Virus record (IMG/VR): IMGVR_UViG_2778261504_000002
Coordinates: 1-16,850 of that record
From: a virus
Lineage: Duplodnaviria > Heunggongvirae > Uroviricota > Caudoviricetes
Direction: 5' to 3' (one strand)
Length of the DNA: 16,850 nucleotides
A model generated the notes under the pieces. That model was not told the DNA's origin and searched no databases. It worked only from the letters and a program-made list of their open reading frames with translations. Positions 7,210 through 16,248 of this stretch are shown here, piece by piece (positions within the stretch are counted from its first letter, which is position 1; each line of letters starts with the position of its first letter). Made by a program: the position numbers and the translations under genes.

Positions 7210-7614
7210 TCACTTATTACTGTTCGTTTCCATGGGATTGGCCAAGAAATCAAAATAAGGCAGAGTGAACCTACCAAGGTTTGACATGAGGATAATTTGC
7301 TCGGCATATGTTTTTATATAGGGATATGCCATATTGGGAGCAATGGACCTTACCTCATATGATTTTGCCATTTCATGAGAAAAATCATCTTCTGACCGGA
7401 AGTCAAAGTCGTATGTGATGTCCATCTCAAGCCTGCCTTCAATAGTTACGGAGGCAAAATATCTCACTCTAAATAGCTTTGAATCCTTCACATTAGTGTA
7501 AAGTTCATTATTTAGATTAACGGTTGTTTTTATGGCTTTTTTTGCTGTTGAATCGCCTTCTAGCCGTGTCATAACCAAGCGTTCAACTTTTTTGCTAATG
7601 AGTTCAATTTTCAT
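7210..7614 (-). CDS. SecB-like chaperone of a toxin-antitoxin-chaperone (TAC) system
   Basis: 134-aa ORF whose start overlaps the antitoxin stop (ATGA). C-terminal region IAPNMAYPYIKTYAEQIILMSNLGRFTLPYFDF resembles SecB ([25 protein letters not shown]) and the M. tuberculosis TAC chaperone Rv1957 (YPYIREYVYDLTGRLALPPL). AT-rich compared with flanking phage DNA. Similarity judged from memory. Confidence 0.6.
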   Translation of the reverse strand: MKIELISKKVERLVMTRLEGDSTAKKAIKTTVNLNNELYTNVKDSKLFRVRYFASVTIEGRLEMDITYDFDFRSEDDFSHEMAKSYEVRSIAPNMAYPYIKTYAEQIILMSNLGRFTLPYFDFLANPMETNSNK

Positions 7615-8267
7615 GGTAATAATAAGTAATTTCCGTCAGAAGTCATTTCGTCATTCAGGTTGCTAGCCGCTGTGAAACTTGATGACAAGTTACTTATCAA
7701 AGAAAAAACATTCCGTTTTTCTTTGCATTTGCCATTACCCCTTACTGCGCTGAACAACATTTTTGAAAAGTAAGATTCTGTAGCCTTTTCAGCGAAATAA
7801 GCAGAAGGTGATGTGACGGCTGACTCACACCGAGCAATGACGCTAGTCATGGCTGTTTCTTCTTCCTCTGCGTCAACTAGGCTCCATTCAATTGCGCTCA
7901 TATCTTGAATTAAGATATCTGCAGGAATTCCAAGTCCGTCATGTAGTCTACGGATCATTGAAAGACTTAATGGACGCTTACGATTTAAGACCTCAGATAC
8001 TTTAGATGCTGAGCCAATGTATTGTTTCATATCGGCATAAGAGAGGCCTTGTTGATCCATACGGAACTTGATTGCTTCTATGGGATCTGGCTTGTCCATA
8101 GGGAACTCGCGTGACTCATAGTGCTCGATAAGCAAGCCTAGTAGTTCAAACTCATCAAAATCTTCAGTTCCAGGTTGTAAATCACTAGACGCAAGTTCAA
8201 TGAGCCTTTCCATAGCTGCAGCATGCTCTTCACTATTTTTAATGATGCGCCAGCTAGTTCGATTCAT
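7611..8267 (-). CDS. higA: HigA-like HTH antitoxin with a roughly 95-aa C-terminal extension
   Basis: Residues about 60-125 (IKFRMDQQGLSYADMKQYIGSASKVSEVLNRKRPLSLSMIRRLHDGLGIPADIL) resemble E. coli HigA. The ORF continues about 95 aa beyond the point where canonical HigA ends. Start overlaps the toxin stop. Confidence 0.7.
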   Translation of the reverse strand: MNRTSWRIIKNSEEHAAAMERLIELASSDLQPGTEDFDEFELLGLLIEHYESREFPMDKPDPIEAIKFRMDQQGLSYADMKQYIGSASKVSEVLNRKRPLSLSMIRRLHDGLGIPADILIQDMSAIEWSLVDAEEEETAMTSVIARCESAVTSPSAYFAEKATESYFSKMLFSAVRGNGKCKEKRNVFSLISNLSSSFTAASNLNDEMTSDGNYLLLP

Positions 8268-8551
8268 TTAAGCCTCCACTTGTCGTACTCTGCATGAGTT
8301 CCAACTCTTTCAACTATGACCATTCCTGCCTGGTAAACAACTTGGACAACGAGCCGATAGTTATTGCCTTTTATATTAAAAATTACCCTGTTGTTAGGAA
8401 GGAAGTCGGCAGAATTAAATCTATTCCGTATGTCTTGAGTCGTTTTCCAGTTTTCTCTTATCACTTCATCATACCAAGAGTCTAAAGCCCCCTTGGCCTG
8501 ATTGTGCTTCCGGCTAAAACTGTGAAGCTTCTCTACGTTTAAGACCTTCAT
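8264..8551 (-). CDS. higB: HigB-like toxin (RelE/ParE-fold mRNA interferase)
   Basis: 95-aa ORF. C-terminal RVIFNIKGNNYRLVVQVVYQAGMVIVERVGTHAEYDKW aligns with E. coli HigB (HYVFNVGGNELRVVAMVFFESQKCYIREVMTHKEYD) as I recall it. Toxin-first order and tight coupling to the antitoxin. Confidence 0.75.
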   Translation of the reverse strand: MKVLNVEKLHSFSRKHNQAKGALDSWYDEVIRENWKTTQDIRNRFNSADFLPNNRVIFNIKGNNYRLVVQVVYQAGMVIVERVGTHAEYDKWRLK

Positions 8552-9877: not shown

Positions 9878-10177
9878 ATGGAACAAACAAGTTACAGCAA
9901 ACTATCACAGCGAGAAATTGATCGCGCTGAAACTGATTTACTCATCAACCTGTCAACGCTTACCCAGCGCGGTCTGGCAAAGATGATTGGCTGTCATGAA
10001 TCGAAGATAAGCAGAACGGACTGGAGATTTATTGCTTCGGTCTTGTGTGCTTTCGGAATGGCATCAGACATCAGTCCGATTAGCAGAGCTTTTAAGTATG
10101 CGCTTGATGGACTCACCAATAAAAAACGCCCGGTGTGCAAGACCGAGCGTTCTGAACAAATCCAGATGGAATTCTGA
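9878..10177 (+). CDS. cII: CII transcriptional activator
   Basis: C-terminus LTNKKRPVCKTERSEQIQMEF matches lambda CII (ILTNKKRPAATERSEQIQMEF). The HTH region differs from lambda. Confidence 0.9.
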   Translation: MEQTSYSKLSQREIDRAETDLLINLSTLTQRGLAKMIGCHESKISRTDWRFIASVLCAFGMASDISPISRAFKYALDGLTNKKRPVCKTERSEQIQMEF

Positions 10178-10199
10178 GGGAATTACTGGATCAATCCAC
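10119..10199 (-). ncRNA. oop: oop-like antisense RNA
   Basis: The region over the cII 3' end and the cII-O junction matches lambda oop as I recall it. On the minus strand it ends in a hairpin (CGCTCGG...CCGGGCG) plus TTTTTTAT. Confidence 0.45.
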
Positions 10200-10209
10200 A
10201 GGAGTCATT

Positions 10210-11148
10210 ATGACAAATACAGCAAAAATACTCAACTTCGGCAGAGGTAACTTTGCCGAACAGGAGCGTAATGTGGCAGATCTCGATGATGGTTACGCCA
10301 GACTATCAAATATGCTGCTTGAGGCCTATTCAGGCGCAGATCTGACCAAGCGACAGTTTAAAGTGCTGCTTGCCATTCTGCGTAAAACCTATGGGTGGAA
10401 TAAACCAATGGACAGAATCACCGATTCTCAACTTAGCGAGATTACAAAGTTACCTGTCAAACGGTGCAATGAAGCCAAGTTAGAACTCGTCAGAATGAAT
10501 ATTATCAAGCAGCAAGGCGGCATGTTTGGACCAAATAAAAACATCTCAGAATGGTGCATCCCTCAAAACGAGGGAGGTTCCCCTAAAATGAGGGACATCC
10601 CTCAAAACGAGGGAAAATCCCCTAAAACGAGGGATAAAACATCCCTCAAATTAGGGGATTGCTATCCCTCAAAACAGGGGGACACAAAAGACACTATTAC
10701 AAAAGAAAAAAGAAAAGATTATTCGTCCGAGAATTCTGGCGAATCCTCTGACCAGCCAGAAAACGATCTTTCTGTGGTTAAACCGGATGCTGCAATTCAG
10801 AGCGGCAGCAAGTGGGGAACAGCAGAAGACCTGACCGCCGCAGAGTGGATGTTTGACATGGTGAAGACCATCGCACCATCAGCCAGAAAACCGAATTTTG
10901 CAGGGTGGGCTAACGATATCCGCCTGATGCGTGAACGTGACGGACGTAACCACCGCGATATGTGTGTGCTTTTCCGCTGGGCCTGCCAGGACAACTTCTG
11001 GTCCGGTAACGTGCTGAGTCCGGCCAAACTCCGCGACAAGTGGACCCAGCTCGAAATCAACCGTAACAAGCAACAGGCAGCCGTGACAGCCAGCAAACCA
11101 AAACTCGACCTGACAAACACAGACTGGATTTACGGGGTGGATCTATGA
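10210..11148 (+). CDS. O: replication initiator O
   Basis: Near-identical to lambda O along its length (MTNTAKILNFGRGNFA...TNTDWIYGVDL), with an extra 13 aa (GGSPKMRDIPQNE) in the iteron-encoded segment. Confidence 0.95.
   Translation: MTNTAKILNFGRGNFAEQERNVADLDDGYARLSNMLLEAYSGADLTKRQFKVLLAILRKTYGWNKPMDRITDSQLSEITKLPVKRCNEAKLELVRMNIIKQQGGMFGPNKNISEWCIPQNEGGSPKMRDIPQNEGKSPKTRDKTSLKLGDCYPSKQGDTKDTITKEKRKDYSSENSGESSDQPENDLSVVKPDAAIQSGSKWGTAEDLTAAEWMFDMVKTIAPSARKPNFAGWANDIRLMRERDGRNHRDMCVLFRWACQDNFWSGNVLSPAKLRDKWTQLEINRNKQQAAVTASKPKLDLTNTDWIYGVDL
10559..10682 (+). repeat. ori-lambda iterons (six copies) with adjacent AT-rich region
   Basis: Six tandem roughly 18-19 bp repeats of the TCCCTCAAAACGAGGGA type inside O, followed by the AT-rich stretch at 10683..10720. 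Canonical lambda has four as I recall. Confidence 0.85.
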
Positions 11149-11846
11149 AAAACATCGCCGCACAGATGGTTAACTTTGACCGTGAGCAGATGCGTCGGAT
11201 CGCCAACAACATGCCGGAACAGTACGACGAAAAGCCTCAGGTACAGCAGGTAGCGCAGATCATCAACGGTGTGTTCAGCCAGTTACTGGCAACTTTCCCG
11301 GCGAGCCTGGCTAACCGTGACCAGAACGAACTGAACGAAATCCGCCGCCAGTGGGTTCTGGCTTTCCGGGAAAACGGGATCACCACAATGGAACAGGTTA
11401 ACGCAGGAATGCGCGTAGCCCGTCGGCAGAATCGACCATTTCTGCCATCACCCGGGCAGTTTGTTGCATGGTGCCGGGAAGAAGCATCCGTTATCGCCGG
11501 ACTGCCAAACGTCAGCGAGCTGGTTGATATGGTTTACGAGTATTGCCGGAAGCGAGGCCTGTATCCGGATGCGGAGTCTTATCCGTGGAAATCAAACGCG
11601 CACTACTGGCTGGTTACCAACCTGTATCAGAACATGCGGGCCAATGCGCTTACTGATGCGGAATTACGCCGTAAGGCCGCAGATGAGCTTGTCCATATGA
11701 CTGCGAGAATTAACCGTGGTGAGGCGATCCCTGAACCAGTAAAACAACTTCCTGTCATGGGCGGTAGACCTCTAAATCGTGCACAGGCTCTGGCGAAGAT
11801 CGCAGAACTCAAAGCTAAGTTCGGACTGAAAGGAGCAAGTGTATGA
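11145..11846 (+). CDS. P: replication protein P (DnaB helicase loader)
   Basis: Essentially identical to lambda P (MKNIAAQMVNFDREQMRRIANNMPEQYDEK...KFGLKGASV). Start overlaps the O stop. Confidence 0.95.
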   Translation: MKNIAAQMVNFDREQMRRIANNMPEQYDEKPQVQQVAQIINGVFSQLLATFPASLANRDQNELNEIRRQWVLAFRENGITTMEQVNAGMRVARRQNRPFLPSPGQFVAWCREEASVIAGLPNVSELVDMVYEYCRKRGLYPDAESYPWKSNAHYWLVTNLYQNMRANALTDAELRRKAADELVHMTARINRGEAIPEPVKQLPVMGGRPLNRAQALAKIAELKAKFGLKGASV

Positions 11847-13465: not shown

Positions 13466-13634
13466 CCCATCCCAATCCCTTCAATACCAGAAAGAAAGCG
13501 TCGAGCGAGCTTTAACGTGCGCTAACTGCGGTCAGAAGCTGCATGTGCTGGAAGTTCACGTGTGTGAGCACTGCTGCGCAGAACTGATGAGCGATCCGAA
13601 TAGCTCAATGTACGAGGAAGAAGACGATGAGTGA
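13458..13634 (+). CDS. ninF: NinF
   Basis: Track ORF 13404..13634 trimmed to MLSPSQSLQYQKESVERALTCANCGQKLHVLEVHVCEHCCAELMSDPNSSM..., which matches lambda NinF. Confidence 0.85.
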   Translation: MLSPSQSLQYQKESVERALTCANCGQKLHVLEVHVCEHCCAELMSDPNSSMYEEEDDE

Positions 13635-14136
13635 TGTTAAAGAAAAAGATATCCCCGGCTTTGAGGGTATATATAAAGTAACTGAAAATGGAGACATCAT
13701 TTCATGCCGTAAATCAAAAAAATTATCTCATGGCATTAAACCAGGAGGATATGCATTTGTCGGTCTGTATCCAGGTGGCGGGAAAAGACCATCATATAAA
13801 ATGGTTCACAGAATTGTTGCAGAAGTATTTATTGATAACCCAGATGGCAAACCGGAAGTTAATCACAAGGATGGAAATAAACTTAATAATAAAGTTGAAA
13901 ATCTTGAGTGGGTAACGCGAACAGAAAATGCGAAACATGGATTTGATTCCGGATTGCTTGTTCATGGGTTTAATCATCACTTCTGCAAACTAACGCCAGA
14001 ACAAGTGAAATCAATATATAAATCAAAAGGCAAATACAGAGATATAGCCAAAGAATTTGGTGTTTGTGCGCAGACAGTGTGCAACATAAAAAACAAATCA
14101 GCGTACCGACGTTTTTTGGAGGGGATTGATGTTTAG
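13627..14136 (+). CDS. HNH homing-type endonuclease
   Basis: 169-aa ORF with a NUMOD4-like N-terminus (GFEGIYKVTENGDIIS) and an HNH motif (VNHKDGNKLNNKVENLEWVTRTENAKHG). Markedly AT-rich codon usage relative to neighbours. Confidence 0.75.
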   Translation: MSDVKEKDIPGFEGIYKVTENGDIISCRKSKKLSHGIKPGGYAFVGLYPGGGKRPSYKMVHRIVAEVFIDNPDGKPEVNHKDGNKLNNKVENLEWVTRTENAKHGFDSGLLVHGFNHHFCKLTPEQVKSIYKSKGKYRDIAKEFGVCAQTVCNIKNKSAYRRFLEGIDV

Positions 14137-14404
14137 AAGCAAAAAATGGCTTCAGGCAGTCAGGGATATTGAATTTTGCGTTCTTTGCGGAAGATACGGA
14201 GTTCAGGCCGCTCATAGAAATGAAGGGAAGGGGGTTGGGATTAAAGTAGATGATTGCCTTACTGCTGCGCTATGTGTTGATTGTCATTCAAGAATTGATA
14301 ATGGGAGAGATATGAGCAGGGAAGAGCGAAGGGCTGAAATGGATCGGGCCATTGTGCTTACCCTTAAAAAATTGGTTAACAATGGGAGGGTGTTTGTCCA
14401 ATGA
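14126..14404 (+). CDS. DUF1364/YbcO-like Cys-rich protein (putative nuclease)
   Basis: 92-aa ORF with CVLCG...AAH...CVDCH..ID, similar in layout to prophage YbcO-type proteins. Sits directly upstream of rusA, as in DLP12-like nin regions. Confidence 0.55.
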   Translation: MMFRSKKWLQAVRDIEFCVLCGRYGVQAAHRNEGKGVGIKVDDCLTAALCVDCHSRIDNGRDMSREERRAEMDRAIVLTLKKLVNNGRVFVQ

Positions 14405-14763: not shown

Positions 14764-14948
14764 ACGCCACAATTCAAACGATACCAGAACTGCTTATACA
14801 GGCACGAGGCAATCAGACCGAAGTGGCGAGGATGCTTTCCTGCGCAAGAGGAACAGTGCTCAAGTACAACCGAGACAGAAAAGGCGAGCGTCACGTAATA
14901 GTTAACGGCGTCCTGATGGTCACGCCAGGCAAAAAGGGAAGACGATGA
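14760..14948 (+). CDS. ninH: NinH
   Basis: 62-aa ORF with GNQTEVARMLSCARGTVLKY...HVIVNGVLMV, matching lambda NinH (GNQTEVARRLKCSRGTVRKY...HAIVNDVLMV). Confidence 0.8.
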   Translation: MNATIQTIPELLIQARGNQTEVARMLSCARGTVLKYNRDRKGERHVIVNGVLMVTPGKKGRR

Positions 14949-15433
14949 GCATAAGAGAGCTAAACCTCACCAAAGAACAGCACGATTGGCTGAATGGCTG
15001 GCTTGAACTGTGGGGCGCATGGGTTTATTCAGGTCGTCTGGAAAAGCGCATGAGCAGCGTAATAGCGAAGTTCATGGAGAGCGTAGAGCCGGGAAGAGTT
15101 ATGACAAGGCCAATGTGTAATGATGATGATGGAATGTTGATTTCTCAGGTCGTCGATTCCGTCATGTACATTGACAAGAAAGCCTTTGGCATCCTCCTCA
15201 GCTACTACGCCCACGGTTCTTCCAAGCACGCCATTGCATCTTACTATCATCGCGTCGCAAGACCTCGCAAGATGTTATGCCGGGGCGGCGGGCGCATTCA
15301 AAAACCATCGCTCGCAACCTGTCGTCGGGAAGTTGACGAAATCCTCAATGCCTCGTTGTTTATGATTTACCCGGTTCTGGATAGTGCGTTTAAAAACCGG
15401 AAACGTGTAGAGAAAATTAAACATGTAGCGTAG
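14945..15433 (+). CDS. Q: late-gene antiterminator Q (non-lambda type)
   Basis: 162-aa ORF with the WGAW...CNDDDG...YYAHGSS pattern of the QuuD/phage 21-82-type Q family. Unlike lambda Q. Directly upstream of the late promoter region. Confidence 0.8.
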   Translation: MSIRELNLTKEQHDWLNGWLELWGAWVYSGRLEKRMSSVIAKFMESVEPGRVMTRPMCNDDDGMLISQVVDSVMYIDKKAFGILLSYYAHGSSKHAIASYYHRVARPRKMLCRGGGRIQKPSLATCRREVDEILNASLFMIYPVLDSAFKNRKRVEKIKHVA

Positions 15434-15924: not shown

Positions 15925-16248
15925 ATGAAGATGCCAGAAAAACATGACCTGTTAGCCGCCATTCTCGCGGCAAAGGAACAAGGCATCGGGGCAATCCTTG
16001 CGTTTGCAATGGCGTACCTTCGCGGCAGATATAATGGCGGTGCGTTTACAAAAACAGTAATCGACGCAACGATGTGCGCCATTATCGCCTGGTTCATTCG
16101 TGACCTTCTCGACTTCGCCGGACTAAGTAGCAATCTCGCTTATATAACGAGCGTGTTTATCGGCTACATCGGTACTGACTCGATTGGTTCGCTTATCAAA
16201 CGCTTCGCTGCTAAAAAAGCCGGAGTAGAAGATGGTGGAAATCAATAA
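15925..16248 (+). CDS. S: holin S (S107/S105 dual start)
   Basis: Near-identical to lambda S ([39 protein letters not shown]...), with the Met-Lys-Met dual-start motif. An upstream CCCC-TTATT-GGGG hairpin overlaps the ribosome-binding site. Confidence 0.95.

Follow-up and report, generated by a model that had tools for sequence, protein, structure and literature searches.

The replication origin in a 16,850-nucleotide stretch of viral DNA (the window) is, with a probability of about 0.85, a lambda-type theta-replication origin in its six-iteron form, in which the two distal iterons are auxiliary sites. The six-iteron origin is real, was correctly interpreted in an initial annotation made from the sequence, and is already known: it has been published, characterised biochemically, and annotated from 1999 on, and E. 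coli prophages commonly carry it. Only two points are mildly new, namely the occurrence of this origin in a non-Stx element and a series of natural forms with four, six, and eight iterons. As replication of Stx-type prophages drives toxin gene dosage, this origin has been a subject of study.

The origin lies within the O gene (10210..11148, + strand), an open reading frame for a replication initiator of 312 amino acids that matches the Pfam family Phage_rep_O. Six 18-bp iterons of the form ATCCCTCAAAACGAGGGA are found inside this gene at 10558-10681, within one base of the block described in the initial annotation, and their start-to-start spacings are 20, 19, 20, 24, and 23 bp. All are on the + strand, and we use the names (1'', 1', 3*) of Kozlowska et al. 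(2020; PMC7466680). The two extra iterons are iteron 1'' (10558..10575, ATCCCTCAAAACGAGGGA), which equals lambda iteron 1 and corresponds to 'ori iteron 1' of the 933W record, and iteron 1' (10578..10595, TTCCCCTAAAATGAGGGA), which corresponds to 'ori iteron 2' of that record. Alignment to lambda identified the others as the equivalents of ITN1 (iteron 1, 10597..10614), ITN2 (iteron 2, 10617..10634), ITN3 (iteron 3*, 10641..10658, with the G-to-A change at 10653 that is the usual Stx-phage variant), and ITN4 (iteron 4, 10664..10681). The dyad arms are TCCCTC...GAGGGA, and four of the six copies match the annotated lambda iterons 1-4 position by position.

The whole 16.8-kb window was searched with the pattern TCCCYHAAAWYRRGGGA, allowing up to two mismatches. 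This search returned six matches on the + strand, all in the array, and two reverse-strand re-hits of palindromic sites. By chance 0.14 matches are expected, and none of 200 shuffled sequences reached eight. No Rfam family reached its gathering score in a scan of the whole window.

The iterons are bordered on their right by an AT-rich region (10682..10724, + strand) that is identical to the lambda sequence in the alignment and is the predicted site of unwinding. The unwinding role is the one established for lambda and follows Kozlowska et al. (2020; PMC7466680). The P gene (11145..11846, + strand; phrog_109, E=5e-99), which encodes the helicase loader, overlaps the O stop codon. [quoted passage not shown]

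We compared the region with the lambda reference (NC_001416), in which 'ori iteron 1-4' are annotated at 39034-39118 and O has 299 amino acids; six iterons are not already present there. Aligning positions 10500-10760 with lambda gave a single 39-bp gap, and the other 222 aligned columns differed at two positions, the G-to-A substitution in iteron 3 and another beyond the AT-rich tract. Since the first and third iterons are identical, placement of the gap is ambiguous, at either 10557-10595 or 10576-10614. In the first placement, the unit missing from lambda (10557..10595, + strand) is a tandem copy of 10596-10634 and encodes 13 extra O residues. Tandem Repeats Finder likewise reported a 39-bp period with 2.0 copies at 10557-10634 (89% matches). 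The extra unit is a diverged copy of the 39 bp that follow it, as 35 of 39 positions are identical. Three of the four differences are in the inter-iteron spacer or adjoin it (GGT versus AAA, K to G), and the remaining one is at the iteron centre (ATG versus ACG, T to M). The iteron positions, together with the alignment, bear out the view that the 39 bp amount to two additional iterons.

The initial annotation also described O as otherwise lambda-like and longer by 13 residues, and both statements held. O has 312 amino acids compared to 299 in lambda, and 297 of the 299 lambda residues are identical, with G17E and G278A the only amino acid differences outside the insertion. The insertion is written GSPKMRDIPQNEG by BLAST, which is equivalent to the GGSPKMRDIPQNE given initially. 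At the nucleotide level the O gene has 17 mismatches and the 39-bp gap relative to lambda, being otherwise 98% identical, while P has 7 mismatches in 702 nt. The Phage_rep_O domain (PF04492) covers residues 22-115 (E=6e-36, above the curated cut-off) and ends at residue 115; the insertion, at about residues 121-134, is therefore outside the DNA-binding domain. The stretch in which it lies is rich in K, S, P, D, E, and G. A PDB sequence search with O found no solved relative.

The statement in the initial annotation that iteron number affects origin activity is reasonable, as experiments published on an identical origin sequence show the extra iterons to be important for its function. Kozlowska et al. 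(2020) (PMC7466680) described Stx-phage replication regions with six iterons, rather than the four of lambda, and 13 additional O residues; they noted the one-nucleotide difference from lambda in iteron 3 and discussed the same alignment ambiguity. Earlier descriptions of the six-iteron origin are cited there (Nejman et al., 2009, 2011; Kozlowska et al., 2017). Their binding data on the P27/933W origin come from EMSA, footprinting, and plasmid assays. With each of lambda O, P27 O, and 933W O, DMS footprinting showed efficient binding of the four AT-proximal iterons only, and at high protein concentration iteron 1' was weakly and iteron 1'' very weakly occupied. Mutation of iteron 1 or 1' cut transformation by a P27-derived plasmid from about 5e4 to <10 per microgram, although a protein effect may also be involved. 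The authors proposed that the extra sites act by increasing the concentration of O nearby or by making the O-some more stable, and that they compensate for the lower affinity of the Stx-phage O proteins. This compensation argument may be weaker for the window origin, since the window O is closer to lambda O than the proteins tested. The abstract suggests in addition that the 13 residues may act as a 'space barrier', and the paper cites lambda as replicating normally with three iterons (Moore, 1981).

A model that accommodates these data is that an in-frame tandem duplication of the 39-bp unit comprising iterons 1 and 2 would have created two more O-binding sites at the end of the array farthest from the AT-rich region, and would have added 13 residues to O just past its N-terminal DNA-binding domain. 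O dimers would bind the iterons and wrap the DNA into an O-some, after which the adjacent AT-rich tract would unwind and O would recruit the P-DnaB complex. If the window origin behaves like the identical P27/933W origin, the core O-some would form on the four AT-proximal iterons, and the two distal iterons would be weaker auxiliary sites that raise the local concentration of O or stabilise the complex. Binding of the iterons by O and firing of the window origin in vivo are likewise probable by transfer from that origin, and the binding hierarchy and the need for the extra sites are expected to carry over from the same literature.

Sequence comparisons revealed that this is a widespread origin. 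Stx1a phage LC744179 has the same O gene (100% identity), and the identity of the window gene is 99.6% with that of H-19B (AF034975, deposited 1998), about 99% with those of BP-4795 and P27, and 98.4% with that of 933W. Six binding sites for protein O, named 'ori iteron 1' to 'ori iteron 6', are explicitly marked in the 933W record (AF125520; Plunkett et al., 1999), at positions homologous to the six of the window. Using a 41-bp probe that spans only the insertion junctions, we found 100% identical matches in 72 phage records, including 933W, H-19B, P27, and VT1-Sakai; all 72 are Stx or EHEC-associated E. coli phages. Thus, the six-iteron variants looked for in other lambdoid origins exist in the H-19B, 933W, and P27 types, of which this is the standard annotated origin and not a peculiarity of the window. 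Of 5,426 complete E. coli genomes, 362 also had matches to the probe, at 570 places in all, with up to four copies per STEC genome, and any lambda-type origin occurred in 1,259 of the 5,426; these two figures give no split between four and six iterons, since a 68-bp query intended to be four-iteron-specific was non-discriminating, with blastn extending it through the six-iteron mismatches.

In GTDB species-representative genomes, the six-iteron junction had no matches, and no six-iteron form was found outside E. coli in the collections searched. The exact iteron-1 18-mer identified 27 true lambda-type origins in these representatives, all with four iterons; a further 22 hits were single chance matches. 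About 22 of the 27 were 100% identical to lambda and came from assemblies of unrelated taxa, including Bradyrhizobium, Pseudoxanthomonas, Lactobacillus, Mycobacterium, Helicobacter, and Anaerococcus (among them loci L126, L130, L134, L137, L142, L143, L152, L158, L161, L172, and L175). As the contigs that carry them are often tiny and of low coverage, these origins are almost certainly lambda DNA contamination.

Iteron number varies in nature. Among 119 IMG/VR loci with an upstream anchor, about 67 had four iterons (O of 299 amino acids) and about 50 had six (O of 312 amino acids). Eight-, five-, and three-iteron forms occurred once each, and in the five-iteron locus (L097; the three-iteron locus is L018) O was frameshifted. 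Three complete E. coli genomes contain a match of 100% identity to a 48-mer specific for eight iterons. In E. coli 03_3013 (NZ_CP074958.1, WP_111305069.1; L125:1477-1639), the eight-iteron O coding sequence is intact (978 bp, 325 amino acids) and has 0 mismatches to the window O outside the repeat. Another eight-iteron version is at L079:10125-10287. Two further loci, L124 and L123, belong with these. The array of O157:H7 strain 2571 is interrupted by IS1203 within the first iteron, and in strain 13E0780 an iteron-to-iteron deletion has left five iterons and a frameshifted O. We found no paper on eight iterons in lambdoid phages, which is weak evidence of novelty given incomplete coverage of the literature.

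The exact number of iterons may be loosely constrained, since lambda manages with three and natural forms have three, four, five, six, or eight. A broader proposal, which we consider unlikely, is that the two-iteron 39-bp module is a cassette that recurrently expands and contracts in frame (four, six, eight, with occasional out-of-frame three- and five-iteron wrecks) and so tunes initiator-origin stoichiometry, and hence how vigorously the phage replicates or how it decides between lysis and lysogeny, across E. coli prophages at large and not just in Stx phages; the window would then hold the immediate six-iteron parent of the eight-iteron allele. The 4/6/8 series could serve as a set of natural alleles with which to ask how the number of auxiliary sites affects O-some assembly, an incremental question in a system that has already been explored thoroughly.

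The same variation bears on whether the extra iterons matter at all. Slippage or unequal recombination among iterons could yield a near-neutral length polymorphism, in which in-frame gains and losses of 39 bp hitch-hike with successful prophages and the added iterons do nothing essential. The natural spread of copy number in the IMG/VR sample would fit this, as would an eight-iteron O gene otherwise identical to that of the window, strong in vitro binding of just four iterons, and the tolerance of lambda for three. However, the P27 plasmid failed to establish when iteron 1 or 1' was mutated (PMC7466680). Moreover, although 4 of 39 positions differ between the two copies of the unit, the extra unit hardly varies among the 72 phage records and 362 genomes, which argues that it has been retained. 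We therefore regard neutrality as improbable and favor auxiliary O-binding sites.

Variation within the extra unit is consistent with that preference. In 47 six-iteron IMG/VR loci the unit varies at only three sites; the spacer bases 10576 and 10596 account for 15 of 16 occurrences of a variant, and the third site is one iteron base, altered in a single locus. By a simple hypergeometric count of sites, the probability that two of three variable sites lie in spacers, which make up 3 of the 39 positions, is about 0.012, although the sequences are closely related. This concentration in the spacers is suggestive of constraint on the iteron arms, where coding and binding-site constraint are inseparable.

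Alternatively, selection could act on the protein: the 13 residues would lengthen a flexible linker that joins the DNA-binding part of O to the part that interacts with P, altering O-some geometry or O turnover, with the iterons a by-product. The location of the insertion, just past the Pfam DNA-binding domain in the K/S/P/D/E/G-rich stretch, and the 'space barrier' suggested in the abstract of PMC7466680 are compatible with such a role. Because the same bases encode both, selection on protein and on DNA are inseparable by sequence. Nevertheless, the published iteron mutants point to a need at the DNA level (PMC7466680), and the variation, including non-synonymous changes (G to S, D to E), is concentrated in spacer bases rather than iteron arms. 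We consider this explanation highly improbable and retain the auxiliary-site model. Finally, the extra unit could be an artefact of sequencing or assembly, since tandem repeats can be mis-assembled and a contig ends about 240 bp from the eight-iteron locus L079. This is hardly credible and was rejected, as the same junction sequence recurs in many independently sequenced phages from 1998 on and at 570 places in complete genomes, and the O reading frame is preserved.

We also examined the genes around the origin. The Q antiterminator gene occupies 14945-15433; next come a holin gene (15925-16248) and an endolysin gene. In the 490-bp gap between Q and holin there are no stx genes, no open reading frame of at least 70 amino acids, and no tRNA. 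The Q and lysis (late) module is closest to those of the non-Stx phages Dewey, HK75, and CUS-3. Within the window, then, the element is not an Stx phage, despite its H-19B-type immunity and replication region. Since there is no stx between Q and the holin gene, the six-iteron origin type is not confined to Stx phages, which is to be expected when one STEC genome can have as many as four copies. The window is mosaic: it combines P22-like recombination genes (abc2, SSB, and erf) with N, cI, cro, and cII of the H-19B type, the six-iteron O-P-ren module, and a nin region that includes HNH and RusA genes. Any one phage record or complete E. coli genome covers at most about 53% of it.

Other features of the window were also recorded. 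Between the N-like gene and cI, at the position of lambda's rexAB, three abutting open reading frames occupy 7210-8551 (- strand). The first encodes a HigB-like toxin (95 amino acids; PF09907, 4.5e-30; PADLOC PD-Lambda-2_A, 2.5e-42), the second an HTH protein of 218 amino acids that matches only the first 125 of 402 PD-Lambda-2_B positions, and the third a protein of 134 amino acids with a weak PD-T4-9_C match. By these matches, the region looks like a shortened PD-Lambda-2-like toxin-antitoxin or defence cassette. The region 10115-10235 has on its - strand a site that resembles a promoter (10235..10207) and a hairpin that, with its T-run, resembles a terminator (10153..10123); they overlap the 3' end of cII, at the position of the lambda pO/oop antisense RNA. 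In the nin region just upstream of RusA, 13627-14404 holds two adjoining HNH-endonuclease-like open reading frames (169 amino acids, phrog_59; 92 amino acids, phrog_131).

Compared with known systems, the window origin resembles that of lambda in its position inside O, its identical AT-rich region, and its four AT-proximal iterons, which are the same bar one base in iteron 3; it differs in having two extra iterons (39 bp) and an O protein 13 amino acids longer. It resembles the origins of H-19B, 933W, P27, VT1-Sakai, and BP-4795 in having six iterons, identical spacing and AT-rich tract, and an O of 312 amino acids, and it shares with Stx phages the single-base iteron 3* variant (A at 10653, G in lambda) reported in PMC7466680. 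The likeness to H-19B extends to the type of cI, cro, and cII. Unlike 933W O, the window O lacks L37I and S295G (window numbering) and keeps the L37 and S295 of lambda. The eight-iteron derivative (E. coli 03_3013; IMG/VR contig 2695420596_000008) differs by one further exact 39-bp copy. In contrast to Stx phages of the H-19B and 933W type, the window has neither an stx operon nor tRNA genes in the interval from Q to the holin gene.
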